Positions 4,207 to 61,603 of a stretch of 64,000 nucleotides of DNA are shown here, in pieces. The notes under the pieces were generated by a model. The model was not told where the DNA came from and ran no database searches. It saw only the letters and a list, made by a program, of their open reading frames with translations. Source of the DNA: Pseudomonadota bacterium (lineage in GTDB: Archaea; Thermoplasmatota; SW-10-69-26; JACQPN01; JAJPHT01); the NCBI GenBank assembly GCA_021325135.1, contig JAJPHT010000020.1, positions 23,377-87,376 of the forward strand, read 5' to 3'. Numbering within the stretch: position 1 is the first letter of the stretch; each line of letters starts with the position of its first letter. The translations under genes and the position numbers were made by a program.

Positions 4207-5508
4207 TCACCCGGCGGGGACCGGCGCGACGCCGGCGAGCACGCGCTGGGCGCCGCCGGGCGTCGCCACGACGAGGTCGCTCCCCGCGTGGGCGAGGAGC
4301 GTCGGCCCCAGGAGGCCGCCGTCGGCCACGGCGATCGTGCTCGCGGGGATGCCGAAGAGGTCGCGCAGGGTCGCGCCCAGGTCCAGCTCCGAGACGAGGA
4401 AGTCCTCGAAGCTCCCGGCGTCCTCGCTGGCGGCCTTGACGTGGAGGCGCACCGAGGACGCGGAGGTCGCGTCGCCCGTGCCGCCCACGTCGGGGAAGCC
4501 CAGGAGGAACTGCCCCGTGGAGCCCCCGGGCACCTGATCCGCCCACACGATGGGGGCCGAGCCCTCCGCCTTCTCCTGGCCCAGGGAGACGCCGCCGTCC
4601 CACGTCCCCGCGGTGACGGCGCCGGGGAAGTAGAGGCCGAAGAGGTCGCTCCAGCCGTGGGGGTAGGGCGATGCGGCGGAGAGGGTCTGGTCGCGGGCCG
4701 CGGCGGCGGGGCGCGCGTCGGGGGAGACGCTCCCCTCCACCTTGGGATCGCCGATGCGGATGGCCTCGGCGAGGGGGAAGAGGGGCAGGCCCGAGACCTC
4801 GTCGTACACGGCGACGTGGAGCCCCTGCCCGGTGGCCACCACGGGGAGCGCGATGGGGGCGCGCCCCTGCTGGGCCCGCACGAAGTCGTCCGGCGTCGCG
4901 GGGGGCGTGGCGGAGAGCTTGGGCGCCTCGGCGAGGAAGCGCAGGCCGAACGCCGCATCCGCCTGGGCCCCGCGGAGCGCGACGACCACGTGGAGGAGCG
5001 TGCCCTCCTGGCGGCCGTTCATGAAGACCTCGCCGAAGGCAGGGCTCGACCTGGCCTCGATCTTCTGGGCCTGCCCACCCAGGAGCCCCAGGGGCTCCAC
5101 GGTCCCCGAGACGCTTCCCACGCTGAGGACCTCGATGAGCTTCCCGTCCTTCTCCGCGAACGCCGCCATCATCCACGCGCTGAGGTTGCCGCCCTCGGGG
5201 AGGAGGGGGGAGACAAGGAGGTCGACGGCGTCGTACTGGTTGAAGAAGCGGTCCTTGTGGACGCTGCCCGCGGGCACCGTGACGTTGAACGCGGTGAGCG
5301 CGCCTTCGGGGGCGACGCTGGCGTTCACCACGAGCCAGTCGTCCAGCGTGGGGGCCCGGCTTGCGTTGGCGGGCGTCGCGTTGAGCCGCGCCAGGGCGGG
5401 GGGTGGGGGCTCGGAGGCCAGCGTCGGGGGCACCGAAGAGGGGGAGAGGCAGCCGGCGAGGCCGGTGCCTAGGATGGCGAGGACGGTGATCAGGGTCAGG
5501 GCACGCAC
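4207..5508 (-). CDS. putative secreted lipoprotein, unknown function
   Basis: GTG start gives VRALTLITVLAILGTGLAGC (signal peptide plus lipobox). GGAGG lies 9-13 nt upstream. The rest of track ORF 4207..5925 is upstream read-through. Confidence 0.6.
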   Translation of the reverse strand: MRALTLITVLAILGTGLAGCLSPSSVPPTLASEPPPPALARLNATPANASRAPTLDDWLVVNASVAPEGALTAFNVTVPAGSVHKDRFFNQYDAVDLLVSPLLPEGGNLSAWMMAAFAEKDGKLIEVLSVGSVSGTVEPLGLLGGQAQKIEARSSPAFGEVFMNGRQEGTLLHVVVALRGAQADAAFGLRFLAEAPKLSATPPATPDDFVRAQQGRAPIALPVVATGQGLHVAVYDEVSGLPLFPLAEAIRIGDPKVEGSVSPDARPAAAARDQTLSAASPYPHGWSDLFGLYFPGAVTAGTWDGGVSLGQEKAEGSAPIVWADQVPGGSTGQFLLGFPDVGGTGDATSASSVRLHVKAASEDAGSFEDFLVSELDLGATLRDLFGIPASTIAVADGGLLGPTLLAHAGSDLVVATPGGAQRVLAGVAPVPAG

Positions 5509-8451: not shown

Positions 8452-8474
8452 GGGCCGCTCTCGTCCCTGTTGTC

Positions 8475-8493
8475 GCTGGGGGCGGAGCCCCCA
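8475..8493 (+). repeat. CTGGGGGC-GGA-GCCCCCAG hairpin (REP-like)
   Basis: 8-bp GC stem, 24 nt after the stop of the 8221..8451 gene. Left flank TCGCTGGGGGC and right flank ..GCAAG match the element at 15641-15677. Confidence 0.6.
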
Positions 8494-8533
8494 GAAAGAG
8501 CAAGAGGGGGCTTGCCACAAAGCGGGCCCGCTC

Positions 8534-11431: not shown

Positions 11432-12199
11432 CTAGGCCCCGCGCTCCTCGCGCACGATGCGCCCCGACTCCATGTGCACGGTGCGGTCGCACAGCGACGC
11501 GACGTGCGGGTCGTGCGTCACGACGACGTAGGTCTGCCCGCGCTCGCGGTTGAGGCCGCGCATGAGGGCGAACACCTCGCGGCCGGTGGCGGTGTCGAGG
11601 TTGCCCGTGGGCTCGTCGGCCCAGACGATGGCGGGGTCGTTCACCAGCGAGCGCGCGATGGCGACGCGCTGCTGCTGGCCGCCCGACAATTCCGCGGGGC
11701 GGTGGTCCGCGCGCTCCGCGATGCCCACGGCGGCCAGCGCGCCGAGGGCCTTGCTGCGCGCCTCCTCGGGGGCGAGCCCTGCCACGAGGAGGGGCACCTC
11801 GACGTTCTCGATGGCCGTGAGCACGGGGAGGAGGTTGAACGCCTGGAAGACGAAGCCCATGCGCTTCGCGCGCTGGAGCGTGCGCGAGCGCTCGGAGCGC
11901 GCCGCGAGGGCGACGCCCTCGATCTCCACCGTGCCGCCGTCGATGGCGTCGAGGCCGGCGAGGCAGTTGAGGAGCGTCGTCTTGCCGCAGCCGGAGGGGC
12001 CCATGATGGCCAGCATCTCGCCGCGCGCGACGTCGAGGTCCACGCCCTGGAGCGCCGGCGTCTCGACGCCCTCGCCCCGGTAGACCTTGGTCACGCCACG
12101 CGCGCGCACGATGGGCGCCGCGGGGTCGGGCGCGGGCTCGGGGGCGGCGGGCGCGCGGCGCAGGCGCAGGGGCACGCACGCGCATGGAGCCCGTGCCAT
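11432..12199 (-). CDS. ABC transporter ATP-binding protein (MacB/LolD-like)
   Basis: Walker [10 protein letters not shown], signature [13 protein letters not shown], Walker [16 protein letters not shown] at 12199; alternative GTG at 12109. Confidence 0.85.
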
Positions 12200-12247
12200 A
12201 AAGGCCGCCGCCACAAGCTTGATGGCCGATCCTTCGGCTCGCCGCGC

Positions 12248-15200
12248 GTGGCGCGCCTCGGGCTCGCGGCCAAGCTCGCGCGGCGCAACCTGCTGCGCCG
12301 CCGCGCGCAGACCGCCATCGTCCTCGCCGGGCTCTTGGTGGGCACCGCCGTCGTCGCGGCCTCGCTCTCCGTGGCGGACAGCCTCCGCTACGGCATCCGC
12401 CGCTCCACCTTCGACGGGCTGGGCCCCGCCGACGAGTTCGTCCAGCTTGCGGGCCAGCGCTACTTCCCCGCCGGCGTCTACGACGCGCTGAAGAACGACA
12501 GCGCGCTGCGCGGCGCGACGCGCGGGCTCTCGCCGGTGGTGATCGACTCGGGGAGCGTCCGCGACGCGCGCACCCGCGAGACCGAGCCCGCCGTGGGCAT
12601 CGCGGGCTTCGACCCCGCCGCGGACCGCCCCTTCGGCCTCTTCACGCTCCAGGACGGGCGCCGCACGGACGGCGGCGAGCTTGGGCCGCAGGACGCGTAC
12701 CTCGCGGAGGACGTCGCGGCGCGCCTCGACGCGAAGCCGGGCGACACGCTGGTGGTGGGCGTGCAGCGCGCGGGGTTGCCGCTCTCCGACGTGGTGTTCA
12801 GCATCCACGGCAACATCTCGGGCGTGGGCGGCGGCTGCGTCTCGCCCCCGGTGCCTGTTCCCGTCGTCCCCGGCGCGCCCCCCGTGCCGCCCGTCCCGTG
12901 CGCCTACACGCCCGACCCGGTGGACAACGTCACGTACACGATCCCCGTGGGGCGCGGCGCCGCGCTGCTCACCGTGCTGCTGGAGCCCATCGGAGCCGAG
13001 GACTCGCCGACCCGGCCCGATCTGGATATCATCGCGACCTCGCCCAGCGGCAACCGCACCGAGGCGACGCAGGGGCTTCCCGGCGCGCCCAGCGACCCCG
13101 CCGTGCTCCGCATCGAAGGGAATCGATATCTCGAGCGCGGCGACTGGACGATCCAGGTCACGACCAAGGGGGGCGCGGAGGGCAAGTTCAACGGCGGCAT
13201 CTTCGTCTCCTACGCGCAGTACGACGCCACCGGGCAGGGCGCGGGCGCCGGGGAGACGGTCATCGGCGACGCGGACGCCTCGGCCTACCTCGCGGTGGGC
13301 GCCAGCGCCGCGGCGCACGAGAACGTCACGCTCAAGGGCATCGTCAAGCGCGAGGGCAAGGGGCAGTTCCTCGGCACGACGGGCCTCTTTCTCAACCTCC
13401 CCGGCGCGCAGGCTCTCGTGGGGCAGCCCGGGCAGGTCAACGCCGTGAAGATGAGCAACGACGGCAGCGTCGAGACGGGCTGGCAGCGCGGCGCCGCCGC
13501 GACCGCTGCCGCCACGCGCGTCCTGGACGCGCAGCGCGCCGCGCACCCGGACGACCCCGTGTACGACCACCTCGCGCCCGCGCCCGTGAAGGCGCTGGGC
13601 CTCGCGGGCGCGGAGCAGGAGAGCAGGTTCTACCGCGACTTCCTCGCCGCCGTCTCCACGCTCACCGTCATCGCGGGCGTGCTGCTGGTGGTCAACGTCT
13701 TCGTGCTCCTCGCGCAGGAGCGCCAGCGCGAGCTTGGCGCCGCGCGCGCCATCGGCCTCTCGCGCGCCGACGTCGTCGCCTCCTTCGTCGTCGAAGGCGC
13801 GATCCTCGCCGCCCTCGCCGCGGTGGGCGGCGTGCTCGTGGGCCTCGTCGGCGCCGCGGGCGTCCTCTTCGGCTTCGACTTCATCCTCAGCGCCGTGGGC
13901 ACGGGGCTGGGCACGTTCGTTCTCCATCCCGAGCCCGCGAGCCTCGCCCTCGCGGCGGGGCTCGGCTTCGTCGTGACGCTGGCCGCGGCCGCAGGGGCGT
14001 CGTACCGCATCGGCGGCATGAACGTCGTGCGCGCCCTGCGCGGCCTGGAGGACGACCCCGCCCACCGGCGCGGCGCATGGGCCGGCGCGGCTGCGCTCGT
14101 CCTCCTGGCCGTCGTCTCGCTCCTCCTGGGCCCCTTCGCCGCATGGGCCTTTGCGCCCCCCCTCCTCACGGGCGCCGCCGCGGCGCTCCTCGCGCGCCGT
14201 CGCTGGGCCCCGCCGCTGGCGGGGCTCCTTCTCGTGGCGGAGGGCGGGCTTGCCATCTTCCTCCTCACGCCGCCCGCGGACGCCGTGGGCCGCGTCCTGG
14301 GCGTCCTGCGCGGCGTGCCCGTCGCGCTGGGCCTGACGCTCCTGGCCCTGGGCGCGCCCGCCCTCGCGCGCGGCGCGGAGCGATTGCTATCACGCGTGCG
14401 CGCGCTGCGGCCCACCGCGCCCCTCGCGGTGCGCTATCCCCTCCGCCGCCGCGGGCAGACGGGGCTCACGGTCACGATGTTCGCCTTCGTGACGCTGATC
14501 CTCGTCTTCTTCAGCATCTTCGGCACGACCTTCGCGCTGGACATCGCGGGCGAGACGGGCGGCTACGACGTGTACGCCACCACCGACGCGCCCTACAGCG
14601 ACCTGCGCTACGCCTACGACCAGCAGCCCCCCGGCGCGCGCGACGCCTACGCCCTGGCCAACGTCACCTCGCAGGACCCGCTCCTCGTCGCCACCGTCGC
14701 GGGCGGGAGCCTCCTCACGCTGGACGGCGCGCGGCCGCACTACAAGGGCGCGCCCGTGGACCGCGTCTTCGCCTCGCTGCCCAGCTTCCCCAAGCGCGAG
14801 CAGTTCGCCTTCGCCGAGCTCGACCCCGCCTACCCCAACGGCAGCGCCGCCTTCGAGGCCCTCCTCAAGGACCCCACCCTCGCCATCGTCAGCGTCGCAT
14901 ACACGCTCGACGAGACGGGCAACCCCGGCGCGCACCACGTCGGCGCGGACCTCACGCTCCACTTGGCCACGGGCGACAAGCATCTGCGCGTCATCGGCGT
15001 CATGAAGGAGCTCTACCTGGGCGGCGTGTGGGTGAATCCCCTGGTGCTGCGCACGGGCTTCCAGCAGGTCAGCGGCGGCTACCTCCTCAAGGCCGCGCCG
15101 GGCCACGAGCCCGCAGCCGTCGCGCGGCAGCTGGAGCGCAGCTTCGACGGCACGGGCCTCCACGCGGTCGACCTGCGCACCGAGGCGGGCGTCGTCCTGG

Positions 15201-15616
15201 AGGAGAACGAGCAGTTCCTCCGCATGTTCCAGATGTTCCTGGGCTTCGGCCTCCTCGTGGGCATCGCGTCGCTGGCGGTCGTCTCCGCGCGCAGCGTGCT
15301 GGAGCGCCGCGCCCACATCGGCGTGCTGCGCGCGCTGGGCCACACGCGCCTCTCCATCCTCACGTGGCTCCTGGGCGAGTCGCTCCTGGTCACCATCCTG
15401 GGCACGCTCGTGGGCGTCGCCGCCGGCTCGCTCCTCGCCTTCGGCGTGTGGTTCACCACCGTGCGCCCCGTCATGGCGGTGCCCTTCGCGTACTCGTACA
15501 TCGTGATCCCGGTGATCCTCCTCATCACGTGGGGCTGCGCGCTGGCGGCCGTCTTCCTCCCGGGATTCCTCGCGACTCGGGCCACGCCCGCCGAGATGGT
15601 GCGGCGCGTCGATTGA
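12248..15616 (+). CDS. ABC transporter permease with two FtsX-type membrane domains and a very large extracytoplasmic domain
   Basis: ~1120 aa. N-terminus is [19 protein letters not shown]. Two FtsX-like 4-TM blocks (near 13650-14050 and 15200-15600). Pro-rich and beta-sandwich-like insert at 12830-13260. Confidence 0.75.
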
Positions 15617-15620
15617 TTGC

Positions 15621-15677
15621 TTTTTTGAAGACCTCCTTTTGCCTTCTCGCTGGGGGCTCCGCCCCCAGCGAGAAGGC
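15621..15677 (+). terminator. oligo-T tract plus 17-bp perfect hairpin downstream of the ABC permease gene
   Basis: T6 at 15621-15626 begins 5 nt after the TGA. GCCTTCTCGCTGGGGGC-TCC-GCCCCCAGCGAGAAGGC lies at 15641-15677. Confidence 0.5.
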
Positions 15678-15691
15678 AAGTCTCGACTGCG

Positions 15692-18351: not shown

Positions 18352-19245
18352 GTGGAGCGCCCCTCCCGCGCGCGGACGATCCTCGAGTTCGTGAAGATCG
18401 AGCACGCCCTCTTCGCGCTCCCCTTCGTGCTCGCGGGCATGATCGAGGGGTTCCGCGAGCGCGGCGTCCCGCTGCGCCCCACCGCGGAGGGCGCGCGCCT
18501 CCTGCTCCTCGTCCTCGTGGCGGCCGTCTCCGCGCGGACGCTGGCCATGACGCTCAACCGCATCGTGGACCGCGGCCTCGACGCGCGCAACCCGCGCACC
18601 GCAGGCCGCGCCATCCCCGCGGGCCTCCTCTCCACGCGCGCCGCGTGGGCGCTGGCCGCGGTCTCGCTCGTCCTCCTCGTCGCGGCCTCGGCGCTCCTCA
18701 ACCCCCTGGTGCTGGCGCTGACGCCCGTCCTCGCGCTCCTCTTCTTCGCCTACCCCTACGCGAAGCGCGTCACCTGGGCGTGCCACTTCGTGCTGGGCCT
18801 CGCCTTCCTCTGCGCGCCCGCGGGCGGCTTCCTGGCGGTGACGGGCTCCTTCGCGGGCTGGACGCGCGTGCTGCCCCTGTCGCTGGCGGCCATGGCGTGG
18901 GTGTCCGGCTTTGATATCATCTACGCCCTGCTGGACCTCCCCTTCGACCGCGCGAACGAGGTCAGGAGCGTGCCCGCCGTCTTCGGCGAGGGCCCCGCGC
19001 GGCGCGTGGCGGTGGGGCTCCACGTGCTCACCGTGCTCCTCCTCGCCATCTACGCCCGCCTCGCGGGCTTGGGCTGGCCCATGTACCTCGCCGTCGTCGC
19101 CATCGCGGCGCTCCTCGCCTACGAGCACGCGACCGTCGACCCCAGCGACCCGGTGGCCATCAACAAGGCGTTCTTCCAGGTCAACGCCGTCGTGGGCTGG
19201 GTCGCGCTGGCGGGCGTCGCCGCCGCCCTCTGGCTCGCCGCGTGA
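18352..19245 (+). CDS. UbiA-family aromatic prenyltransferase (MqnP / 4-hydroxybenzoate polyprenyltransferase-like)
   Basis: FVKIEHALFALPF..., NRIVDRGLDARNPRTAGRAIP (Asp-rich motif 1), DIIYALLD (motif 2), and about 8 TM segments. Confidence 0.8.
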   Translation: MERPSRARTILEFVKIEHALFALPFVLAGMIEGFRERGVPLRPTAEGARLLLLVLVAAVSARTLAMTLNRIVDRGLDARNPRTAGRAIPAGLLSTRAAWALAAVSLVLLVAASALLNPLVLALTPVLALLFFAYPYAKRVTWACHFVLGLAFLCAPAGGFLAVTGSFAGWTRVLPLSLAAMAWVSGFDIIYALLDLPFDRANEVRSVPAVFGEGPARRVAVGLHVLTVLLLAIYARLAGLGWPMYLAVVAIAALLAYEHATVDPSDPVAINKAFFQVNAVVGWVALAGVAAALWLAA

Positions 19246-25808: not shown

Positions 25809-27008
25809 CTAGCGCGGCCCGCCGCCCAGCTTCACGGGCACGCCGCGGCCGCGGTTCCCGACCTTGCCCAGGTGCACGGAGAGCTGCCCCGTGTCGTGGG
25901 GCTTCTCGTCCTCGGTGGGGTCGTCGAAGCGCCGCAGGATCGCGTAGTACGTGTCGCGCTGCGCGGGGACGTAGCCCCCTTCGCGGAGGTAGCGCCGCGC
26001 CGCGGGCGGGTCCATGCCGAAGAGCGTGCCCGCCGCGCTGATGACGTTCTCCTCCATGAGCACGCCGCCCCAGTCGTTGGCGCCCATCTGGAGCGCCACC
26101 TGCGCGACCTTCGGGCCCTCGGTGACCCAGCCGGCCTGCACGTTGGCGAAGTTGTCCAGGTAGAGCCGCGAGAGCGCGATGGTCCTCAGGTAGTCCTCGG
26201 TGGTGGCGTGGCTCTTCTTGAGGCGCGTGCTGCCGTCGGTCTGGAAGCTCCACGGGATGAAGGCGGTGAAGCCGCGCGCTCCGCGGGCGACGGCGCGGTC
26301 CTGCACCTCGCGCACGCGGTCCAGGTGCTCCACGCGGTGGCGCCACTCCTCGCCCATGCCGAACATCATGGTGGCGGTGGAGGTCATGCCCAGCTTGTGG
26401 CACTCCTCGTGGATCTCCATGTAGACCGAGGCCTTGGTCTTCAGCGGCGAGACGCGGTCGCGGATCTCGTCCGAGAGGATCTCCATGCCGCCGCCGGGCA
26501 GCGACTTCAAGCCCGCGGCGCGGAAGCGCTCCAGCACCTCGCGGTAGGAGAGCTTCTCCTGCTGGGCGTAGAACTCGATCTCCGTCGCTGTAAGTGAGTG
26601 GATGTCCACCTGAGGGAAGCGCTCGCGCACCGCGCGGAAGAGCTGCTCAAGGTAGCTCATGGGCAGGTCGGGGTTGAGGCCGCCCTGGAGGAGCACCTGC
26701 GTGCCGCCCCACGCGACCAGGGGCTCGATCTTGGCGAGCACCTGCTCGATGGAGAGCGAGTAGGCGTCCTTCTCCTTCGCGGTGCGGTAGAAGCCGCAGA
26801 AGTCGCAGAGCGCGACGCACACGTTGGTGTAGTTGATGTTGCGGTCCACGACGTAGGTGACCACCTTGGGGTCGGTCACGGCGTTGCGGCGCGCGTTGGC
26901 CGCCGCCGCGAGGTCGAGGAAGGGCGCCTGCGCGACGAGGACGCCCTCCTCCGGGGTCAGGCGGCCGCCCTGCGCGGCCTTGTCGAGAAGCTGCTGGACG
27001 CGGGTCAT
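25809..27008 (-). CDS. radical SAM menaquinone biosynthesis enzyme, MqnC/MqnE family (MqnC-like)
   Basis: DRNINYTNVCVALCDFCGFYR CxxxCxxC cluster, GGTQVLLQGG, and a TIM-barrel radical SAM layout as in futalosine-pathway cyclases/synthases. Overlaps mqnA by ATGA. Confidence 0.75.
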   Translation of the reverse strand: MTRVQQLLDKAAQGGRLTPEEGVLVAQAPFLDLAAAANARRNAVTDPKVVTYVVDRNINYTNVCVALCDFCGFYRTAKEKDAYSLSIEQVLAKIEPLVAWGGTQVLLQGGLNPDLPMSYLEQLFRAVRERFPQVDIHSLTATEIEFYAQQEKLSYREVLERFRAAGLKSLPGGGMEILSDEIRDRVSPLKTKASVYMEIHEECHKLGMTSTATMMFGMGEEWRHRVEHLDRVREVQDRAVARGARGFTAFIPWSFQTDGSTRLKKSHATTEDYLRTIALSRLYLDNFANVQAGWVTEGPKVAQVALQMGANDWGGVLMEENVISAAGTLFGMDPPAARRYLREGGYVPAQRDTYYAILRRFDDPTEDEKPHDTGQLSVHLGKVGNRGRGVPVKLGGGPR

Positions 27009-27919
27009 GGCGCGACCTCCAGGGGCGTCAGCGGCGGGACTTTGGGCATCTCCCCCACCTTGCGCGCCAGGTCGAAGTAGCGCGCGAGGCCCGCGAGCTT
27101 GGGCGCGTCGAGGTCGTAGTTGAGGTCGCGGAAGTAGCGCTCCATGAACGCCCGCGAGAGGAAGAGCTTGCGGCGCGCGTGCTCCACGATGGGCGCGCGG
27201 TTGGCGCGCCCCCACGCCTTGCTGGCCAGGAGCGCGTGGTGCACGGCGCGCAACGCCTCGGGGTCGCGCTGGGCGAAGTCGCGGCGGGCGGCCCACACGG
27301 CGAACACCATGGGCGTGCCGGTCCAGCGCGTCCACTCGTCGGCGAGGTCGAGGCGCCCCAGGTTGGGGTACGCCAGCGAGGCGCGCAGCGCGGCGTCGCC
27401 GATGAGGAGCACGCCGTCGTAGGCGTGGCCGATCTCCTCCAGGTCCGCGTCGCCCTGCACGATCGCGGCGTCGAGGCCGAGGCGCTCGCGCATGAGGATC
27501 TTCAGCAGCACGACGCTGGTGGCGCTCTCTCCGGTCACGCACACCTTCCCGCCGCGCAGCGATTCGACGCCGTTGCGGAAGAAGAGGGACACGCTGTGGA
27601 CGAACCCCGTGCTGTTGATGGAGAGGCCCGGCAGAAGCTCCAGCGAGTCCGCATGCTGCGCGTAGGCGAAGCTGGACACGGGGCTCACCTGGAGGGCACC
27701 CGAGGCCAGCTGCGCGTTGAGCGTCGTGGGCGGCGCCTTCACGAGCTCCGCGCCCGGGGGCAGCGGCACCGCGCCCGTCTCCAGGCCGTAGTAGACGGGG
27801 AGCGAGTTGAGGTAGTCGATATACCCGAGTCTTACGGGGGCGGCTCGCGAGCCGCCCCCGTAAGACTCGGGTGCGCGACGAACGCTGCGTTCGTCGCTGT
27901 AGCCCACGCGGACCTTCAT
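27005..27919 (-). CDS. mqnA: chorismate dehydratase MqnA (futalosine pathway)
   Basis: LGYIDYLNSLPVYYGL N-terminal motif, VitK2_biosynth fold signature, and placement between two Mqn radical SAM genes. Codons 8-33 are a palindromic insertion. Confidence 0.8.
   Translation of the reverse strand: MKVRVGYSDERSVRRAPESYGGGSRAAPVRLGYIDYLNSLPVYYGLETGAVPLPPGAELVKAPPTTLNAQLASGALQVSPVSSFAYAQHADSLELLPGLSINSTGFVHSVSLFFRNGVESLRGGKVCVTGESATSVVLLKILMRERLGLDAAIVQGDADLEEIGHAYDGVLLIGDAALRASLAYPNLGRLDLADEWTRWTGTPMVFAVWAARRDFAQRDPEALRAVHHALLASKAWGRANRAPIVEHARRKLFLSRAFMERYFRDLNYDLDAPKLAGLARYFDLARKVGEMPKVPPLTPLEVAP
27823..27897. repeat. two adjacent perfect palindromes inside the mqnA coding sequence
   Basis: 27824-27871 is a 48-nt perfect palindrome CCCGAGTCTTACGGGGGCGGCTCG|CGAGCCGCCCCCGTAAGACTCGGG (50 nt with the flanking A/T). 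27875-27897 is a 23-nt perfect palindrome GCGACGAACGC-T-GCGTTCGTCGC. Confidence 0.9.
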
Positions 27920-29038
27920 TCAGGCCACCGCCAGGGGCGTCAGCTCGCGGGGGATGGGGTGATAGCTTCCGAAGGCGTACTCGGGGACGAAGCCCGCGCT
28001 GGTGATGAGGGGCGTGAGGTCCTCCTTCTTGACGAAGGCCCACGTCTTGCCTCCGGCCGCCTGGAGGATGCGCTCCTCGAAGGCCGCGCCGCCGATGTCG
28101 TCGACGCCGAAGTGCAGCGCGACCTGCGCCATGGGCTTGCCCACGGTGACCCACGGGAGCTTGATGTGGGAGACGTTGTCCAGGTAGAGCCGCGCGATGC
28201 TCACCATGCGCAGCGTGTCGAACGCGCTGGGGCCCATGGCGCCGGTCTTGGCGTGGAGCTCCGTGTTCTCGGGGTTCCACGCGAGGCCCAGGAAGGCGTT
28301 GAAGCCGCGGGTGCGGTCCTGCATCTCGCGGACGCGGCGCAGGTGGTCGACGCGCTCCTCCGCCGTCTCCACGTGGCCGTAGAGGATGCTCACGTTGGTG
28401 GGGATGCCCAGCGCGTGCGCCTCCTCGTGGACCTGGAGGAAGCGGTCGCCCGCGATCTTGGTGGCCATCATGCGCTTGCGCGCCTCGGGATGGAACACCT
28501 CCGCGCCGCCCCCGGGAATGCTATCAAGGCCAGCGGCACGGAGACGCCGCAGCGTCTCCGTGATCGACAGCTTCTCGCGCTTGGCGAGGAAGTCGACCTC
28601 GACGCCGGTCATGCCCTGGATGTGGGCCTGGGGGCTGACCTTCTTGAGGCGCCGGAACATCTCCTCGAAGTAGGCGAGGTCGCACTCAGGGGTGAGGCCG
28701 CCCACGACGTGCCACTCGTTGACGCCCACCTTGGCGGCGGCCTTGGCTTTCTCCTCGATCTCGTCCAGGGTCATGAGGTAGGCCTTCTCGCTGCCGCTCT
28801 TGGCGAAGAAGGCGCAGAACCCGCAGTCCGCGGCGCAGATGTTGGTGTGGTTGACGTTGAGGTCCGTGCGGGTGTAGACCTTGTTGCCGTGGCGCTTCGC
28901 GCGCTCGCGGTGCGCCAGCCTGCCCAGGGCGACGACGTCCTGCACGGCGAAGAGGGCCAGGGCGTCCTCGTCGGTGATCCGCTCGCTCCTGGCGAGCTTG
29001 CGCTCGACCTCGTCCAGGATGGGCATTCTCATCGGCAT
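27920..29038 (-). CDS. radical SAM menaquinone biosynthesis enzyme, MqnC/MqnE family (MqnE-like)
   Basis: NVNHTNICAADCGFCAFF cluster and VGGLTPE. The stop abuts the mqnA ATG (TGAATG). Start at one of three ATGs: 29038, 29032 or 29026. Confidence 0.75.
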   Translation of the reverse strand: MPMRMPILDEVERKLARSERITDEDALALFAVQDVVALGRLAHRERAKRHGNKVYTRTDLNVNHTNICAADCGFCAFFAKSGSEKAYLMTLDEIEEKAKAAAKVGVNEWHVVGGLTPECDLAYFEEMFRRLKKVSPQAHIQGMTGVEVDFLAKREKLSITETLRRLRAAGLDSIPGGGAEVFHPEARKRMMATKIAGDRFLQVHEEAHALGIPTNVSILYGHVETAEERVDHLRRVREMQDRTRGFNAFLGLAWNPENTELHAKTGAMGPSAFDTLRMVSIARLYLDNVSHIKLPWVTVGKPMAQVALHFGVDDIGGAAFEERILQAAGGKTWAFVKKEDLTPLITSAGFVPEYAFGSYHPIPRELTPLAVA

Positions 29039-29055
29039 CGGCGAGGGGGCGGCGG

Positions 29056-29069
29056 CTTTTAAGGGTATC
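29056..29069 (-). promoter_or_regulatory. promoter-like motif GATACCCTTAAAAG upstream of the mqn operon
   Basis: Lies 31 nt upstream of ATG 29038 and 37 nt upstream of ATG 29032 (minus strand). Confidence 0.4.
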
Positions 29070-29131
29070 ACCCTGGAGCCACGTTGGGATGGGGGTTTTC
29101 CGCCGGGGGGCGGCCCACTCCGCCGCGAGTG

Positions 29132-29983
29132 TCACGCGAGGCGCGGGGCCGCGAAGGTGACCGGGTCCAGGGGGCCGGTGGTGGCGTGGCTGCCGTCGGC
29201 GAAGCCCAGGGTGGCGACGGGGTCGATCTCGGCGGGGGGCGAGGCGTCCTCCAGCGTGAAGAGCATCCCCATCATGGCGCCCGCGGGCACGACCACGTGG
29301 TAGGGGTCCGCCGCGTCGTCCAGGCCCGCGAGGCGCCCGGCGTCAGAGCGGGCGAGGACGCTGAACGCCTTGCCGTCGGAGACGAGGGGGCGGCCGGTGC
29401 GCAGGTCGCGGAAGGAGACGTCCACGGTCTCGTTGCGCCCGGTGCCGTTGCACAGGACGTAGGCGTAGCGCGCGCCGCCGCCGGTGGGCACGTCCTTGGC
29501 GCCCGCGCTCTGCACCACGGAGACGCGCCCAGGGCAGGGCGGGCCGTCGGGGACCGCGACGGTGCGCGACTCGCCGTGGCCCACGGCCTGCCCGTCCTGG
29601 GCGAAGGAGTACGAGACGTGGAGGTCCGCGGGCGCGTCCGCGGGGACCGGGAGGAACGAGGTCGCGATGAGGAAGCCGTCCTGCCCGAACGCCTTCATGG
29701 GCGCGTGGATCGAGTCGTCGACGCCCGCTTCAGGCACGCGGATGAGCAGGTCGCCGGTGAAGTCCTGGGCGCCTGCGTTGGAGGCCAGGGAGAAGATGGC
29801 GGCCACGTGCCCGCGAGGAGCGGGGAAGATCACGAGGGGGTCGAGGGTGGGGTAGGGGCCCGTGGCGCTGGCGAGCCACGGCGATCCCGTGGGGTCGAGG
29901 GCGGGGTCGGCGCGCGTCGCGCCGGGAAGGACCAGGGGGGCAAGCAGCGCCAGGAGGGTGGCGGCCCGCAGGATGCCTCGCAC
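29132..29983 (-). CDS. secreted protein, unknown function
   Basis: MRGILRAATLLALLAPLVLPGATRA signal peptide. 283 aa with normal composition and no recognisable domain. Confidence 0.55.
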   Translation of the reverse strand: MRGILRAATLLALLAPLVLPGATRADPALDPTGSPWLASATGPYPTLDPLVIFPAPRGHVAAIFSLASNAGAQDFTGDLLIRVPEAGVDDSIHAPMKAFGQDGFLIATSFLPVPADAPADLHVSYSFAQDGQAVGHGESRTVAVPDGPPCPGRVSVVQSAGAKDVPTGGGARYAYVLCNGTGRNETVDVSFRDLRTGRPLVSDGKAFSVLARSDAGRLAGLDDAADPYHVVVPAGAMMGMLFTLEDASPPAEIDPVATLGFADGSHATTGPLDPVTFAAPRLA

Positions 29984-30029
29984 GCGCGGGAAGCGCCTCG
30001 GCCCTCCATCACGCTTCGGGTGTCACCCG

Positions 30030-30896
30030 TCAGTGGGAACGCTGCACGGCCTCGGCCTGGAGCCCGCCCACGACGACGGGGAGCGCGGCGCGGACGAGCG
30101 CGAGGACCTTGCCGTCCAGCGAGCCCGAGGGCGCGGGGGTCCACGTCCAGTCGATCCCTGCGAACGGGTCGCGCCCCGTTCGCGAGGCCGGATCGTCGGC
30201 CTGCTGGTCCAGCGGGGCCACGCGGCAGAGGGAGTCGGAGAGCACCAGCATGGCGCCCGCGCGGAAGCCGCGCTTCTTGGCCACGGCATAGAGGCCGGCG
30301 GTCTCCATGTCCACGGCGTGCGCGCCGCGGGCGCGGTACCGCTTGGCCTTGCCCACGGTTTCCCGGTAGGGCGTGTCGGTGGTCCAGACGGTGCCGCACT
30401 GGTACGCGACGCCCGGGTCCTCGCCCAGGCTCATCTCCAGCGCGTCCTTCATGATGGGCGTCGCCGCGACCTCGTCGGTGGAGTCCAGGTACGCGCGCGA
30501 CGTGCCGTCCTCGCCCAGCGCGCGCTCCACCACGAGGAGGTCGCCGCTTTGGAGGAGCGGGTGGACGATGCCCGCGAAGCCGATGCCCACGAACGTGTCG
30601 ACGCCGCACGCGTGGAGCTTGTCCGCGACCAGCGCCGTGGCGGGCGCGCCAATTCCAGGGTTGACGAGGATGAAAGGCTCGCCGGCCCACGTTCCGCGGT
30701 AGAGCTTCGCGACGCCGGCCTTGAGGTCCGTGGGCTTGGCGTGCGACACCTGCCGCACGACCTCGAAGAGGGGCTCGCCCCACGTCAGGAGCGCGCGCAT
30801 GGGCACGCTTCCGGGCGCGACCTGCGCGCCCCCGTGCTCCGCGCGCCGCTTGAGGCCCGCGAGGGGCGTCACGATCTCGCGGTCGTCGTCGCTCAT
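30030..30896 (-). CDS. PNP/UDP family-1 nucleoside phosphorylase/hydrolase (possible futalosine hydrolase role)
   Basis: GIGAPATALVADKL..., GFAG..., and DMETAGLYAVA motifs of the PNP_UDP_1 fold. Start at MSDDDREIV. Confidence 0.7.
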   Translation of the reverse strand: MSDDDREIVTPLAGLKRRAEHGGAQVAPGSVPMRALLTWGEPLFEVVRQVSHAKPTDLKAGVAKLYRGTWAGEPFILVNPGIGAPATALVADKLHACGVDTFVGIGFAGIVHPLLQSGDLLVVERALGEDGTSRAYLDSTDEVAATPIMKDALEMSLGEDPGVAYQCGTVWTTDTPYRETVGKAKRYRARGAHAVDMETAGLYAVAKKRGFRAGAMLVLSDSLCRVAPLDQQADDPASRTGRDPFAGIDWTWTPAPSGSLDGKVLALVRAALPVVVGGLQAEAVQRSH

Positions 30897-31020
30897 GCTG
30901 CCGCCCAAGCCGCCCCCCGCACTTATGTCTATTCGTGCGCGGCGATGGCTTGGGGGCCACCGGGACGCCGAAGGAACAAACTCGCGGGGGCGGGGCGTCT
31001 TGGCGGGCCGGAACGGCGAG

Positions 31021-31034
31021 GATACCTTCAAGAT
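31021..31034 (+). promoter_or_regulatory. promoter-like motif GATACCTTCAAGAT upstream of the 76-aa gene
   Basis: First base is 37 nt upstream of ATG 31058. Confidence 0.4.
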
Positions 31035-32289: not shown

Positions 32290-32404
32290 GGTCAAGGGTC
32301 CAAAGAACGCGACGAGCGCCACGAGCGCAAAGGGCGCGACGACGAAAGACACCGTGGCGACCTTGGCGCTCTTTGCGCTCATCGCGTTCTTTGGACCCTT
32401 GACC
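32290..32404. mobile_element. MITE-like palindromic element, copy 1 (115 bp)
   Basis: GGTCAAGGGTCCAAAGAACGCGA...TCGCGTTCTTTGGACCCTTGACC. The outer 23 bp of the arms are perfect inverted repeats and the arms are ~85% complementary over ~45 bp. About 90% identical to the element at 36357-36465. Confidence 0.7.
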
Positions 32405-32733: not shown

Positions 32734-34845
32734 TCATAGGCTGCGGCTCGTCCGCTCGCCCGGAGGCCCCCCGGGGACCTGGGAACCCGCGGGGAGCGTG
32801 AACCGGAACGTGGACCCGCGCCCGGTCCCCTGGCTCTCGCAGCCGATCTGCCCGCCGTGGGACTCCACGATCCCCTTGGCGACGTAGAGGCCCAGCCCCG
32901 CGCCGGAGCGCGTCTTGTCCATGTGGTCGTGGAGCTGGCTGAAGGGCTTGAAGAGGCGCCCGATGTCGTCGGCCGCGATGCCGGCGCCCGTGTCGGCCAC
33001 CTCCACGCACGCGCTCCCGTCGCGCATCCTCACGGAGACGAGGACGCGCCCCCCGGCGGGCGTGAACTTCAGGGCGTTGCGGATGAGGTTGAACAGCACC
33101 TGCGTGATGCGGGGCGCGTCGGCGGGCACGACCGCGGCCTCTCCTTCCAGGTCGAGGGAGATGCCCTCCTGGAGCGCGGCCTCGTGGAACGACTCCACGG
33201 CCTCCTCCGCGAGGCGGCGCACGTCGGTGGGCGCGGGGCGCACGTCGAGGCGCCCCGACTGCACGCGCGCCGAGTCGATGACGTCGCGCAGCAGAAGGCC
33301 AAGCTGGTCCACGTTGCGCGAGAGCACCGAGACGCTGGTGCGCTGGCGGTCGGAGAGGGGCCCCAGCTTCTCGGAGCGGAGCATGTGCGCCTGGAGCTTG
33401 ATGGGCGTGAGCGGCGTGCCGAGCTCGTGGGCGGCGTTGTTGATGAACTGCGTCTTGATGCGGTCGATCTCGCGGAGGCGCTCGTTCATGGACTGCAGCT
33501 CGCGCTGCTCGGCCAGGGCGCGCTCGGTGCGGCGCCGCTCGGTCACGTCGCGGAAGCTCCACACGCGGCCGATGACGTCGTCGCCCACGCGCTGGGGCTG
33601 CGAGTAGCGCTCGAAGGTGCGCCCGTCGCGGAACTCCAGCACGTCGAAGCTCGCCGTCTCGCGGTCCTGGTAGAGGTCGTCCACCTTGGCGCGGAAGCCG
33701 GAGGGGTCGAGGAGCTGGTCCTGCACGTAGGAGAGGGCGCGCGCGTCCTCGCCCGCCTCCAGGATGGACATGGGGATGCCCCACATCTCGACGAACTTCT
33801 TGTTGAAGCCCGCGATCTTGCCCCCCTGGTCGACGACGAGGATGCCGTCGGTGGTGGACTCCAGCGTCGCGGTGAGGGTGGAGACGGCGCGGCGCAGCGC
33901 CTCCTCGGCGCGCTTGCGCTCGGTGACGTCGCGCAGCGTGATGACGGTCCCGATGATGGCGTCGTTGTTGCGGATGGGCGTGCGCTCGATCTCCACGGGG
34001 ACCTGGGCGCCGTCCTTGCGGCGCACGTGCACGGGCGCGTCGCTCACCAGGTGGGGCCCGCGGGGCAGCCAGGCAAGCTCCAGGGGCGCCGCGCCGTCGC
34101 TGGTCTGGATGAGCGCGTCGATGCTCTTGCCCTGGAGGTCGCCCACGGCGTGCTGCGTCATGGCGGCCGCGGCGGGGTTGGCGAACGTCACGAGGCCGTC
34201 GAGGTCCAGGCCGATGATGCCCTCGCCCGCGGAGTCCAGCACGAGCGCCGTGCGGCGGCGCGCCGTCTCCGCGACCTTCCACCCCATGAGGAGCGCGACG
34301 CTCTCGCCCAACACGAGGGAGGCGTGGATGAGCGCCCACTTCCAGGGGTGCGCGTAGGCGTCTCCGTGGTTGTAGACGAGGGTGGGGAAGAGCGTCCCGA
34401 TGATGCCGTGGTCCAGCGCGACGTAGGCGATGGCCAGGAGGAAGGGGATCCAGTCCTGGTAGAGCGCGATCACGGCCAGCACGACGAAGAAGTGGAAGTG
34501 CGCCTCGATGTAGCCCCCGGAGAACTGGACGATCATCGCCGAGGAGGTCACGAGGGCGAGGGCCGCGACCGCGCCCCGGAAGCGGCGCCGGGCGCCCGGC
34601 CACGACGCGACGAGGCCGATGGCGCCCACCAGCGCGCCCTCCGCCAGCGCGAGCGCGGGGAGGACGCCCATGTAGAGGCCGAAGGCGGCGACGCCCGCGG
34701 CGTGGCCGTAGATCACGAAGAGGATCGCGCGGTGCCTCGCCCTCCACTCGTCCTCGGGCAGCTCGCGCCCTTCGGGCAGCGCGCGGCGCAGGGCGTCCGA
34801 GAGGCGGGCGGCGAAGGGGCTGCCGGCGGGGAGGGCGCTGGACAC
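32734..34845 (-). CDS. membrane sensor histidine kinase with tandem PAS domains
   Basis: N-terminal multi-TM region, three PAS-like blocks, HisKA (NNAAHELGTPLTPI), and HATPase_c (N-box NLIRNALKF, G-boxes DTGAGI, GLGLYV). GTG start with GGAGGAG upstream. Confidence 0.85.
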   Translation of the reverse strand: MSSALPAGSPFAARLSDALRRALPEGRELPEDEWRARHRAILFVIYGHAAGVAAFGLYMGVLPALALAEGALVGAIGLVASWPGARRRFRGAVAALALVTSSAMIVQFSGGYIEAHFHFFVVLAVIALYQDWIPFLLAIAYVALDHGIIGTLFPTLVYNHGDAYAHPWKWALIHASLVLGESVALLMGWKVAETARRRTALVLDSAGEGIIGLDLDGLVTFANPAAAAMTQHAVGDLQGKSIDALIQTSDGAAPLELAWLPRGPHLVSDAPVHVRRKDGAQVPVEIERTPIRNNDAIIGTVITLRDVTERKRAEEALRRAVSTLTATLESTTDGILVVDQGGKIAGFNKKFVEMWGIPMSILEAGEDARALSYVQDQLLDPSGFRAKVDDLYQDRETASFDVLEFRDGRTFERYSQPQRVGDDVIGRVWSFRDVTERRRTERALAEQRELQSMNERLREIDRIKTQFINNAAHELGTPLTPIKLQAHMLRSEKLGPLSDRQRTSVSVLSRNVDQLGLLLRDVIDSARVQSGRLDVRPAPTDVRRLAEEAVESFHEAALQEGISLDLEGEAAVVPADAPRITQVLFNLIRNALKFTPAGGRVLVSVRMRDGSACVEVADTGAGIAADDIGRLFKPFSQLHDHMDKTRSGAGLGLYVAKGIVESHGGQIGCESQGTGRGSTFRFTLPAGSQVPGGPPGERTSRSL

Positions 34846-36356: not shown

Positions 36357-36465
36357 CCAGGGTCCAAAGAACGCGATGAGCGCGAAGAGCGCAAAGGACG
36401 CGACGACGAAAGGAACCCTCGCGACCTTGGCGCTCTTCGCGCTCATCGCGTTCTTTGGACCCTGG
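36357..36465. mobile_element. MITE-like palindromic element, copy 2 (109 bp)
   Basis: Perfect 36-bp terminal inverted repeats CCAGGGTCCAAAGAACGCGATGAGCGCGAAGAGCGC around a 37-nt centre. Fills the spacer between the convergent rhomboid and flavoprotein genes. Confidence 0.75.
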
Positions 36466-36478
36466 ACCAGAGCAGTCA

Positions 36479-39691: not shown

Positions 39692-40603
39692 ATGGGCCTG
39701 GATTCTCCAGTGGTGCAAGCCCTCCTTCTGGCGGTCGTCTGGGCGGGCATCGGCCTCCTGGCCCTGGGCTACTTCTGGAAGGACAAGCGCAGCCACCTGC
39801 TGCGGGCGTGGGGCTGGGTCCTCTTCGCCTCGTACTGGCCCTTCCAGGCGCCGCACTTCTTCGGCGGCGACGAGCCCGACCCCATCAACGGCTGGTTCAC
39901 GCTGCTGGGCCCGCTCTTTCTGCTTTGGGTCGCGTGGCACGAGTGGCGCTCCTACGCGTGGGACGAGGACCCTGCCGCGCTGCGCTGGTTCGCCGGCGCC
40001 TCCGCCGTCTCGGCGGCCACGTACTTCGTCATCTTCCAGATCCCCGGCGTGCAGAATTGGATCATGCAGGGCACCGCGCAGCAAAGCGCGTGGCTCTACA
40101 ACGTCCTCTTCAGCCACGCCAGCGGACACGTCGCCTACGTCCCCACCTCCAGCCTTTCCCCCGACGGCTACGACATCATGCTCACGGGCGACGGCAGCCC
40201 CTACGCCGTCACGGTCGTCCTGGCATGCACGGCCATCCAGAGCATGATGATCTTCGTGGGCGCCATCGCGTGCCTCGCCGCCGACACGCGCCGCAAGATG
40301 TGGGGCTACCTCATGACGGTGCCCACCATCTACTTCCTCAATCTCTTCCGCAACGCGGGCATCATCTACGGCTACCACGACCTGCATTGGAGCATGTTCG
40401 GCCTGGAGCCCTTCGAGTGGATGCACTCCTACGTGGGCAAGATCGGCTCGCTGCTGGCGCTTGTGGTGATCGCGCTGGGCGTCTTCGCGACGCTCCCCGA
40501 GCTCCACAGCAACATCCTCGACCTCTTCGACCTCAGGAAGAGGAACAAGCCCGGCTTTTTCAAGCAGCCGCCCAAGGAGCAGGCTCCCGCGCCCGAGGCG
40601 TAA
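39692..40603 (+). CDS. archaeosortase (exosortase/archaeosortase family transpeptidase)
   Basis: Polytopic protein with the family's catalytic Cys context (VVLACTAIQSM), the conserved Arg in NLFRNAG, and a downstream His (WMHSYVGK). Subfamily not assignable by eye. Confidence 0.75.
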   Translation: MGLDSPVVQALLLAVVWAGIGLLALGYFWKDKRSHLLRAWGWVLFASYWPFQAPHFFGGDEPDPINGWFTLLGPLFLLWVAWHEWRSYAWDEDPAALRWFAGASAVSAATYFVIFQIPGVQNWIMQGTAQQSAWLYNVLFSHASGHVAYVPTSSLSPDGYDIMLTGDGSPYAVTVVLACTAIQSMMIFVGAIACLAADTRRKMWGYLMTVPTIYFLNLFRNAGIIYGYHDLHWSMFGLEPFEWMHSYVGKIGSLLALVVIALGVFATLPELHSNILDLFDLRKRNKPGFFKQPPKEQAPAPEA

Positions 40604-59868: not shown

Positions 59869-60501
59869 CTAGCGCGGCGGCTCGTCGGCGGGGGGCTGCG
59901 ACGCCTCGCCCTGCGGGAACGCGCTGAGCTTCTGGTTCCCCTTCTCGTCGGTGGTGGGGAGCTTCAGGCCCACCTTGTCGGCGAGGAAGTGCTTGATGCC
60001 CTCGCGGTCCGCGGCGGGGATGCCGAAGTACTCGGGGAAGCGCTCCGAGGTGACGAGGAGGAAGCTTCGCTCGTGGACGCGCTTGCGGACGAGGCCCGCC
60101 TCGGTCAGCTCCGCGATGTGGTCGTACACCTTGGGGCCGACCATGTCCTTGAGGTCGCTTTGCAGCACGGGCTGGTGGTACGCGATGAGGGCCAGCGTCT
60201 TGAGGAGCTTGAGGGGGATCTCCATGGGGGCGAGCTTGGTGGTGCTCGGCGCGTAGGCGGTGCGCACCTGCATGCCCCACTTGTCGCCGGCGCGACCGAT
60301 CTCCAGCGCGCTGTGCGCGGCGGCGTAGCGCGCCTGCAATTCCTTCAGCGCGCCGGGGACCTTGCGTTTGTCCAGGCCGGCGTTCTCGGCGATCTCCTCG
60401 ACGCTCACGGGCTTGCCGGCGCTGAAGAGCGCGGCCTCGACGACGAGGACGGGGTCAAGCTCAGCGTCGTCGGTCACGAGAAGCGCCTCAGTTGTTCGCA
60501 T
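59869..60501 (-). CDS. scpB: segregation and condensation protein B
   Basis: VVEAALFSAGKPVSVEEI... and two wHTH-like halves. Sits immediately downstream of, and overlaps, scpA. Confidence 0.8.
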   Translation of the reverse strand: MRTTEALLVTDDAELDPVLVVEAALFSAGKPVSVEEIAENAGLDKRKVPGALKELQARYAAAHSALEIGRAGDKWGMQVRTAYAPSTTKLAPMEIPLKLLKTLALIAYHQPVLQSDLKDMVGPKVYDHIAELTEAGLVRKRVHERSFLLVTSERFPEYFGIPAADREGIKHFLADKVGLKLPTTDEKGNQKLSAFPQGEASQPPADEPPR

Positions 60502-61474: not shown

Positions 61475-61507
61475 TCTAGCTCGCCCCCTCGATCAGGCGC
61501 CTCGACA

Positions 61508-61590
61508 ACGCCACGACGCCACGACGCCACGACGCGACGCTTTCGAGAATCGTGGCGTCGTGGCGTCGTGGCGTCGTGGCGTCGCGACGT
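61508..61590. repeat. octamer-repeat hairpin between smc and scpA
   Basis: ACGCCACG x3 (61508-61531) plus ACGCGACG, a 10-nt spacer, then CGTGGCGT x4 (61551-61582) plus CGCGACGT. Gives a 24-bp perfect stem in several registers. Confidence 0.9.
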
Positions 61591-61603
61591 GACGGAGAGG
61601 CAA

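Follow-up and report, generated by a model that had tools for sequence, protein, structure and literature searches.

To our knowledge, palindromic inserts that stay in frame within genes are well documented in a few bacterial groups (Rickettsia palindromic elements, RPEs, and intragenic repetitive extragenic palindromes, REPs) and hardly at all in archaea, and their effect on expression has almost never been measured. RPEs are hairpin-forming DNA segments inserted in frame in housekeeping or metabolic genes and translated at tolerated positions (PMC10969869). REPs are defined by a GTAG (or CGTC) tetranucleotide located 5' of a 20-40-nt imperfect palindrome; the intragenic ones are short palindromes, single or paired, that encode 20-30 extra residues, lie in a notable share of cases near the N-termini of open reading frames (ORFs), and have been proposed to stabilise mRNAs at the RNA level (Di Nocera et al. 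2013, PMC3733652). We analysed a 64-kb stretch of a Thermoplasmatota contig (JAJPHT010000020.1, positions 23,377 to 87,376; hereafter the window), in which codons 8-33 of mqnA, the gene for chorismate dehydratase, are made up of two adjacent hairpins. Comparison with related loci identified this 78-nt segment as a genuine, old and heritable in-frame insertion in an archaeal (Thermoplasmatota-type) mqnA.

The insert resembles an RPE in being an in-frame, translated hairpin segment at a structurally tolerated site, a likeness already drawn in a first-pass annotation made from the letters of the window alone. However, RPEs measure about 100-150 bp, are dispersed in tens of copies per genome and encode a conserved peptide, whereas the mqnA insert is 78 nt long, archaeal, always found at one site of one gene and single-copy in the DNA searched; it also holds a duplicate of the host's own codons for the first beta-strand (beta1), and encodes a peptide that shows no conservation (dN/dS about 1.3). 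The analogy stands for the in-frame, translated hairpin at a tolerated position; for a dispersed family it lacks support, as a second copy was not found in the window, the related loci, GTDB or the viral contigs. As with intragenic REPs, we are dealing with paired short palindromes near an N-terminus that encode extra residues. REPs differ in having stems of 8-9 bp or more, a 5' GTAG/CGTC tag, a high copy number and often a REP-associated tyrosine transposase (RAYT), whereas the stems of the mqnA insert are 10 and 23 bp, the GTAG lies 3', no family was found, and no RAYT was present among the 20 ORFs scanned.

The codons of the insert are AGC GAC GAA CGC AGC GTT CGT CGC GCA CCC GAG TCT TAC GGG GGC GGC TCG CGA GCC GCC CCC GTA AGA CTC GGG TAT, encoding the peptide SDERSVRRAPESYGGGSRAAPVRLGY. 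Reading the sequence directly, we recovered most of the layout given in the first-pass annotation: the segment is in frame and stop-free, its borders are TAC and TAT, it begins 21 nt past an ATG that forms a TGAATG junction with the upstream stop, it contains a 23-nt palindrome, and VRLGY is re-created in the right arm of the larger one. The extent of that larger palindrome was the point corrected, since the 48 nt described (27824-27871) are present within a perfect palindrome of 50 nt. Its 3' arm carries the codons S-R-A-A-P-V-R-L-G and thereby a second set of beta1 codons, which we call copy B, copy A being the set next to the start codon (Table 1). The two copies are 9/15 identical in the window. 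The codons of copy A all end in G or C, like the rest of mqnA, whereas copy B uses rare A/T-ending codons; overall, such codons account for 9 of the 26 in the insert but for only 7 of the gene's other 278 (Fisher p 4.5e-7).

The predicted RNA fold of the 78 nt reached -68.6 kcal/mol, compared with -31.1 +/- 3.2 kcal/mol for dinucleotide shuffles (z -11.6, 0/200), and the 24-mer arm pair of the large palindrome was reproduced by no shuffle. Positions 27821-27900 were the most stable 80-mer in the entire 64 kb (z -5.5 against all windows).

The ortholog set comprised about 67 close MqnA orthologs, most of 275-282 aa. Approximately 55 of 66 clade members began with M-x(0-4)-[VR][RK][VL]G[YW]-IDYLNSLP and had a length of 275-282 aa. 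The closest orthologs (P0001-P0003, 87-91% aa identity) did not have the insert. In particular, locus L027 (P0002, 90% aa identity) reads TGA ATG GCC GTC CGC GTG GGA TAC|ATC GAC and is empty by exactly 78 nt with respect to the window, while copy A is identical at 14 of 15 positions to the N-terminal codons of L027 (GTC CGC GTG GGA TAC). This clean presence-absence difference between the two loci shows that copy A, the first VRVGY, is the native N-terminus. The alignment thus confirmed the earlier reading of the segment as an insertion, extra to the MqnA fold.

The segment, introduced there as not a described feature of mqn genes, is not unique to the window. A homologous 78-nt insert (type 1, as in the window) occupies the same site in the distant ortholog L001 (P0022, 69% aa identity), an independent JGI soil contig from another sample and assembly, with 66/78 identical nucleotides. 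Shorter in-frame relatives were found at the same site in other branches, namely type 2 in L002 (48 nt) and L003/L022 (51 nt), which represent three independent assemblies, and type 3 in L004 (54 nt). More N-terminal extensions were seen among the orthologs P0004, P0005, P0032, P0018, P0054 and P0025.

These records bear on the possibility that the segment arose as an artefact of assembly or amplification (a fold-back chimera), or that a mis-called start has turned a non-coding leader into palindromic codons. Long perfect palindromes are a known artefact class, the exact window MqnA has no record in the protein collection with either start, and copy B of L001 contains an in-frame GTG. Against this, the flanks run on normally on both sides, L001 has the same insert with compensatory differences in another sample and assembly, and the type-2 inserts recur across assemblies. 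In the window mqnA the only in-frame starts are codons 1 (ATG) and 5 (GTG), and then codon 51, which lies past the conserved IDYLNSLP motif. We consider an artefact or a mis-called start very improbable.

Table 1. Coordinates of the mqnA insert, its parts and the adjoining genes in the window.
Feature	Position	Strand	Details
In-frame insert, codons 8-33	27821..27898	minus	78 nt, stop-free; compared with L027 and L001
Copy A plus start codon	27899..27919	minus	ATG AAG GTC CGC GTG GGC TAC = MKVRVGY; abuts upstream TGA
Small hairpin	27875..27897	minus	GCGACGAACGC-A-GCGTTCGTCGC; 23 nt, odd central base; as RNA 10-bp stem, 3-nt loop
Large perfect palindrome	27823..27872	minus	25+25 arms, no spacer; as RNA 23-bp stem, 4-nt loop
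Copy B	27821..27835	minus	GTA AGA CTC GGG TAT (VRLGY); inside 3' arm of large stem; second beta-strand-1 codon set
mqnA (chorismate dehydratase) ORF, insert included	27005..27919	minus	304 aa; ORF list and PF02621
Upstream radical-SAM/CofH_C gene (MqnE/MqnC type)	27920..29071	minus	Pfam PF04055 and PF19288; TGA stop 27920-27922 abuts mqnA ATG
Downstream radical-SAM/CofH_C gene	25809..27008	minus	Pfam; its ATG overlaps mqnA stop (ATGA)

Types 1-3 have in common a 5' motif AGC GAS GAM CGC AGY (12/15 between the window and L002), the hexamer CCGAGT and a copy B that fits GTN ARR CTC GGS TAY, and a covariance model built from type 1 scored the type-2 insert at 19 bits (E 0.1). Based on the shared motifs and this score, we regard the three types as diverged, partly deleted forms of one old insert. 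In a neighbour-joining tree of the clade the carriers were scattered, each beside an empty sister (window/P0001, P0022/P0031, P0062/P0059). The empty sister L025 reads GTG ACG AAG CTG GGG TAT ATC, in which L003 copy A runs straight into the rare TAT that ends copy B of that locus, as would be expected of a precise deletion between two GG-TAY repeats. The shorter, weakly structured relatives in other Thermoplasmatota branches indicate that the insert is old, patchy and often cleanly lost. A metagenome scan with the MqnA alignment gave 10 loci, among them L022 as another type 2 and no new type 1, and a search with the N-terminal 70 aa alone returned two fragments and no further insert carriers.

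Two other loci showed features of their own at the 5' end of mqnA. In L005 (P0014, 505-580) the 5' extension consists of the 8-nt tandem repeat GCGAACAC present about 3.7 times and followed by an in-frame TTG, which may be the real mqnA start. In L018 (about 4300-4400) a ~100-nt non-coding spacer precedes mqnA and contains a 22-nt inverted repeat, 21/22 complementary (GGTTCCGCGGATCCGCGCATCC ... GGATGCGCGGATCCACGGAACC); this long hairpin is located at the same gene junction as the window insert, yet outside the ORF.

As no in-frame start exists between codons 5 and 51, the hairpins must be translated in the window genome if the enzyme is made, as the first-pass annotation had argued. At the protein level, the MqnA fold is predicted to begin at the second VRLGY, copy B, according to Pfam (residue 30), PDB 7AHR (residue 24) and AlphaFold2. 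In the AlphaFold2 model (pLDDT, predicted local distance difference test, 90.4) residues 1-28 are coil with a pLDDT of 36-51, and beta1 falls at residues 29-34, that is, in copy B. The models thus have MqnA gaining a disordered N-terminal tail of ~28 residues, with the duplicated VRLGY restoring the fold.

Alternatively, the segment could be removed or skipped and the protein be normal, either through an archaeal bulge-helix-bulge (BHB) intron or through a translational bypass from GGC-UAC to GGG-UAU. The predicted N-terminal peptides differ accordingly, SDERSVRRAPESYGGGSR for the read-through product and MKVRVGYIDYLNSLP for the spliced or bypassed one. The host is archaeal, and excision of exactly 78 nt gives an ortholog-like MKVRVGY|IDYLNSLP. 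A BHB motif consists of a 3-nt bulge, a 4-bp helix and a 3-nt bulge. A relaxed scan found no such motif at the borders of the insert, where copies A and B are similar and not complementary, and the BHB matches shared with L001 would excise 26 or 40 nt, which would break the frame, and have a central helix that is mostly G-U; the BHB intron was rejected, since no motif excising 78 nt was found. In bypassing, as in T4 gene 60 and the mitochondrial byp elements, the gap cannot be translated and comes after a stop or hungry codon. The mqnA block is similar to such gaps as a hairpin block flanked by identical-sense codons, with matched Tyr codons (UAC/UAU) before the gap and at its end and a hairpin that begins 1 nt after the first. 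It differs in being open and in frame, and its take-off codon is followed by an ordinary AGC, neither a stop nor a rare codon. The flanking codons do not match in L004 (CGC vs TGG), and the five insert variants examined (78, 78, 48, 51 and 54 nt) are all stop-free multiples of 3, which neither an intron nor a bypass gap needs. Removal or skipping of any kind is thus highly unlikely, and a ribosomal hop from UAC to UAU over 78 nt is barely credible.

We compared the window and L001 inserts for the conservation of pairing and of the peptide. Of the 12 nucleotides (out of 78) that differ, six form three compensatory pairs, three are at loop apices, two in an internal loop and one outside the stems. 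The small hairpin is identical at 22/23 nt, the sole change being the apical base, so that the 10-bp stem is intact. In the large stem, three pairs are changed on both sides from window to L001 (C-G to U-A, U-A to C-G, and U-A to C-G), along with two apical-loop changes and two pairs that are opened into a symmetric 2x2 internal loop. When 12 substitutions were placed at random, at least three compensatory pairs appeared in 0.2% of trials (P about 0.002), and slid-partner controls yielded 0-1. The L001 insert folds at -60.4 kcal/mol (z -8.5). The linker codons 8-28 showed a dN/dS of 1.3 (dS 0.13), compared with 0.53 (dS 0.49) in the rest of mqnA, and the insert had diverged by 15% at the nucleotide level, the remainder of the gene by 25%. 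Paired substitutions have preserved the stems, while the linker peptide changes as though free of constraint, which points to a constraint on the nucleic acid and not on the peptide.

Strong hairpins are confined to type 1; two distant lineages have retained them, and elsewhere they have decayed or been lost. The idea of a hairpin general to all insert variants was rejected, as only type 1 is significantly structured. RNAalifold on a MAFFT alignment of the five variants did not recover the lineage-specific stems, because of indels in the alignment.

Our best reading, on which our confidence is evenly balanced, is that the insert is a translated mRNA/DNA hairpin module placed behind a start codon in direct contact with the upstream stop, and that it probably tunes expression, a role that we infer from its position and pairing. 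In archaea and bacteria, termination-reinitiation coupling requires overlaps or very short distances between genes (PMC6728339, PMC10666635). A translated mRNA hairpin behind a termination-reinitiation start would slow or limit the ribosomes that enter mqnA, and/or the stem would act as a decay barrier between the upstream cistron and mqnA, shielding the transcript on one side against exonucleases. Coupling would keep the stop-start contact that it needs, with MKVRVGY remaining next to the upstream stop. Given the tight packing of mqnA and the short spacing that coupling needs, a stem could be installed here only with the start at the junction and with in-frame read-through, and this is the layout observed. 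The strong effect on translation or mRNA processing that the first-pass annotation expected is plausible.

Several observations weigh against this reading. A covariation shuffle control gave 65/500, which is weak with two sequences, and with only two full-length type-1 copies the covariation rests on three pairs. The shorter inserts (types 2-4) have no significant structure (z -0.05 to -2.35), and none is seen at the empty sites; a hairpin is thus no prerequisite for the insert to persist, and the majority of relatives lack one. That the insert has diverged less than the gene could reflect lateral spread after the lineages split, and spread by recombination is an alternative to vertical inheritance with loss. 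In the 60 nt that follow the insert, the window shares 93% identity with L001 and 88% with the sister L008, a gap of only 3 nt. Moreover, copy B of L001 (3073-3087) opens with an in-frame GTG (GTG AAA CTC GGG TAC) where the window has GTA, so the hairpins of L001 could be an untranslated leader that sequesters a GTG start inside the 3' arm of the long stem. Finally, selection is not needed for paired changes in a DNA palindrome, since hairpin-templated (quasi-palindrome) correction can also produce them.

Palindromes flanked by direct repeats and quasi-palindrome (template-switch) mutagenesis are bacterial mutational phenomena and usually transient events. This mechanism would account for precise loss between short repeats that a hairpin brings together, for paired changes without selection and for a layout of copy, inverted copy and copy; the mqnA insert differs in having persisted across lineages that differ by 31% in the MqnA protein. 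In terms of origin, a hairpin element may have been inserted and have duplicated about 15 nt of its target, or a local fold-back event may have produced the copy, the inverted copy and the copy. Since the insert carries the host's own beta1 codons, an origin at the mqnA locus, by target duplication or fold-back, is favoured. Loss would be easy and precise by slippage between the two GG-TAY repeats brought together by the hairpin, which would explain the patchy distribution.

In its local form, this explanation involves no foreign element. It attributes the insert to an error near the 5' end of mqnA, a fold-back or template switch, in which the beta1 codons were copied, then their inverted complement and then the codons once more, with quasi-palindrome correction and internal deletions afterwards; it concerns the origin only and fits either functional reading. 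The 5' arm of each variant is the reverse complement of its own copy B (ACCCGAGTCTTAC/GTAAGACTCGGGT, CGAGCCTG/CAGGCTCG and GACGCGTCGC/GCGACGCGTC), the L002 sequence past copy A resembles its own reverse complement (CTCGGCTAT|AGCGAG), and the GTDB small-hairpin scan, BLAST and the covariance model described below found no copy elsewhere. On the other hand, the small hairpin and the AGC GAS GAM CGC AGY motif have no visible local template, copies A and B match at only 9/15 positions in the window, and the event cannot be reconstructed from present-day sequences. We rate such an event as an improbable, although tenable, origin.

The main rival reading sees the insert as the functionless, neutral or selfish relic of a small mobile palindromic element, such as a REP, an RPE, a miniature inverted-repeat transposable element (MITE) or an IS200/IS605-type element, whose palindrome is kept by hairpin-templated repair. 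Its palindromic, in-frame nature and its tolerated, disordered position are those of RPEs and intragenic REPs (PMC10969869, PMC3733652), and its atypical codon usage, the patchy distribution of carriers over the gene tree and the loss of most structure from the shorter variants are in line with this. We also found another dispersed palindromic repeat in the window, with two 110-nt copies that are 91% identical (32295-32404 and 36359-36468). However, no second copy of the insert came from a pattern search of the 64 kb that allowed up to 3 mismatches, from BLAST against 195 kb of fetched DNA, or from the covariance model run over 155 kb (the window and about 91 kb of related loci). The borderline matches of this model at 2899-2965 and 33564-33642 were rejected as unrelated GC-rich double hairpins. 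A GTDB scan of 185,579 species genomes for the small hairpin gave six chance sites, all in Actinomycetota and Chloroflexota in unrelated contexts and none in archaea, and the viral contigs had 0 matches. At the gathering thresholds of Rfam 15 the whole window had no match; the sub-threshold matches were to generic hairpin families only (mir-674, 36.5 of 93 bits; Sso133, 31.5 of 44 bits).

The ends of the insert (AGCGACG... and ...CTCGGGTAT) are not complementary and it consists of two tandem hairpins, unlike the terminal inverted repeats of a MITE. The sense strand reads CTAC-A before the hairpin, so that GTAG is found on the opposite strand and 3' of the stem-loop, whereas a REP has it 5'. 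Among the 20 window ORFs scanned there was no transposase, RAYT and TnpA(Y1) included. An own copy of the host beta1 codons is unexpected in a pre-existing mobile element, and the two type-1 copies differ by 15%, therefore they have not moved recently. The 15-nt direct repeat flanking the insert, which resembles a target-site duplication and would speak for mobility, is 14/15 identical in the type-2 carrier L002, 9/15 in the window and 8/15 in L003, and the identity in L002 looks like secondary homogenisation. Taken together, we judge a mobile relic unlikely, while giving it real weight.

The L002 insert (2237-2299) deserves a separate remark. Its copies A and B are 14/15 identical (GTCAGGCTCGGCTAY), though the native N-terminus of its relatives differs, which suggests gene conversion between the copies. 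Its 5' arm CGAGCCTG is able to pair with either copy, giving alternative structures.

The hairpin module that we prefer can be extended to a selected cis-acting unit of a hitherto undescribed sort, a translated hairpin within the ORF that would place a strong regulatory or stabilising stem between cistrons while the stop-start contact is kept, workable because it brings its own first-beta-strand codons. Such a cassette would spread among related lineages by homologous recombination at the conserved GY|IDYLNSLP junction and be lost by hairpin-assisted slippage. We give this full version a low probability.

The assignment of the host gene is based on PF02621 (VitK2_biosynth; 235.8 bits, E 7e-70, residues 30-286), which places the protein in the MqnA family, and on PDB 7AHR (S. 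coelicolor MqnA), which matched it at E 6e-42 over residues 24-295. The nearest named MqnA homologs were from 'Candidatus Thermoplasmatota archaeon' metagenome-assembled genomes, mostly from soil metagenomes. The gene is tightly packed on both sides, with TGAATG upstream and ATGA downstream, as read from the sequence. Futalosine-pathway genes were found in or near the mqnA cluster (18352-19245 and 25809-31031), namely an MqnP-like prenyltransferase, two radical-SAM genes of MqnC/E type and a PNP_UDP_1 (MqnB-like) gene, and an unannotated 283-aa ORF lies within the cluster region at 29132-29983. The window has a GC content of 72.6% and a GC content at third codon positions of 0.95-0.99, and it encodes an archaeosortase A (39692-40603) and Elp3; these two genes and the labels of the MqnA homologs mark the host as an archaeon.

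We also noted other repeats and hairpins in the window. The ~110-nt repeat mentioned above is a near-perfect palindrome (core GGGTCCAAAGAACGCGA...TCGCGTTCTTTGGACCC) located outside the confident ORFs of a rough ORF list, with -87 to -112 kcal/mol for the surrounding ~120-180-nt stretches; the genome thus carries at least one dispersed palindromic repeat family, whose sequence is unrelated to the mqnA insert. A long hairpin at 61497-61590 is formed by inverted 8-nt tandem arrays, (ACGCCACG)n facing (CGTGGCGT)n, with -85.8 kcal/mol for the 131-nt stretch 61480-61610, and sits between the ORFs 60488-61474 and 61604-64000 (SMC). Directly past the 1380-aa ORF 11474-15616 we found a perfect 19-bp stem with a 3-nt loop (15639-15679), of which a related copy (84%) lies at 8470-8510; the pair may be a terminator-like repeat. 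Finally, a nested GC-rich inverted repeat at 2630-2719 (-78.8 kcal/mol for the 141-nt stretch 2600-2740) falls in the first 31 codons of the called ORF 693-2723 (Elp3). The Elp3 domain begins only at residue 163, so the start of this ORF may be over-called, and the hairpins may fall between an lplA-like gene and elp3.

N-termini such as those of the insert carriers will be mis-handled by gene callers and alignments, and one homolog was called from an internal GTG. The mqnA insert is an unusually clean case: it occupies a single site, close relatives provide natural alleles with and without it, and in a diverged second copy the stems are kept and the peptide is drifting. If the stems are functional, this would be a structured RNA element hidden in coding sequence and fitted to a translationally coupled operon; if they are neutral, it would be an archaeal example of the persistence, decay and precise loss of a palindrome.

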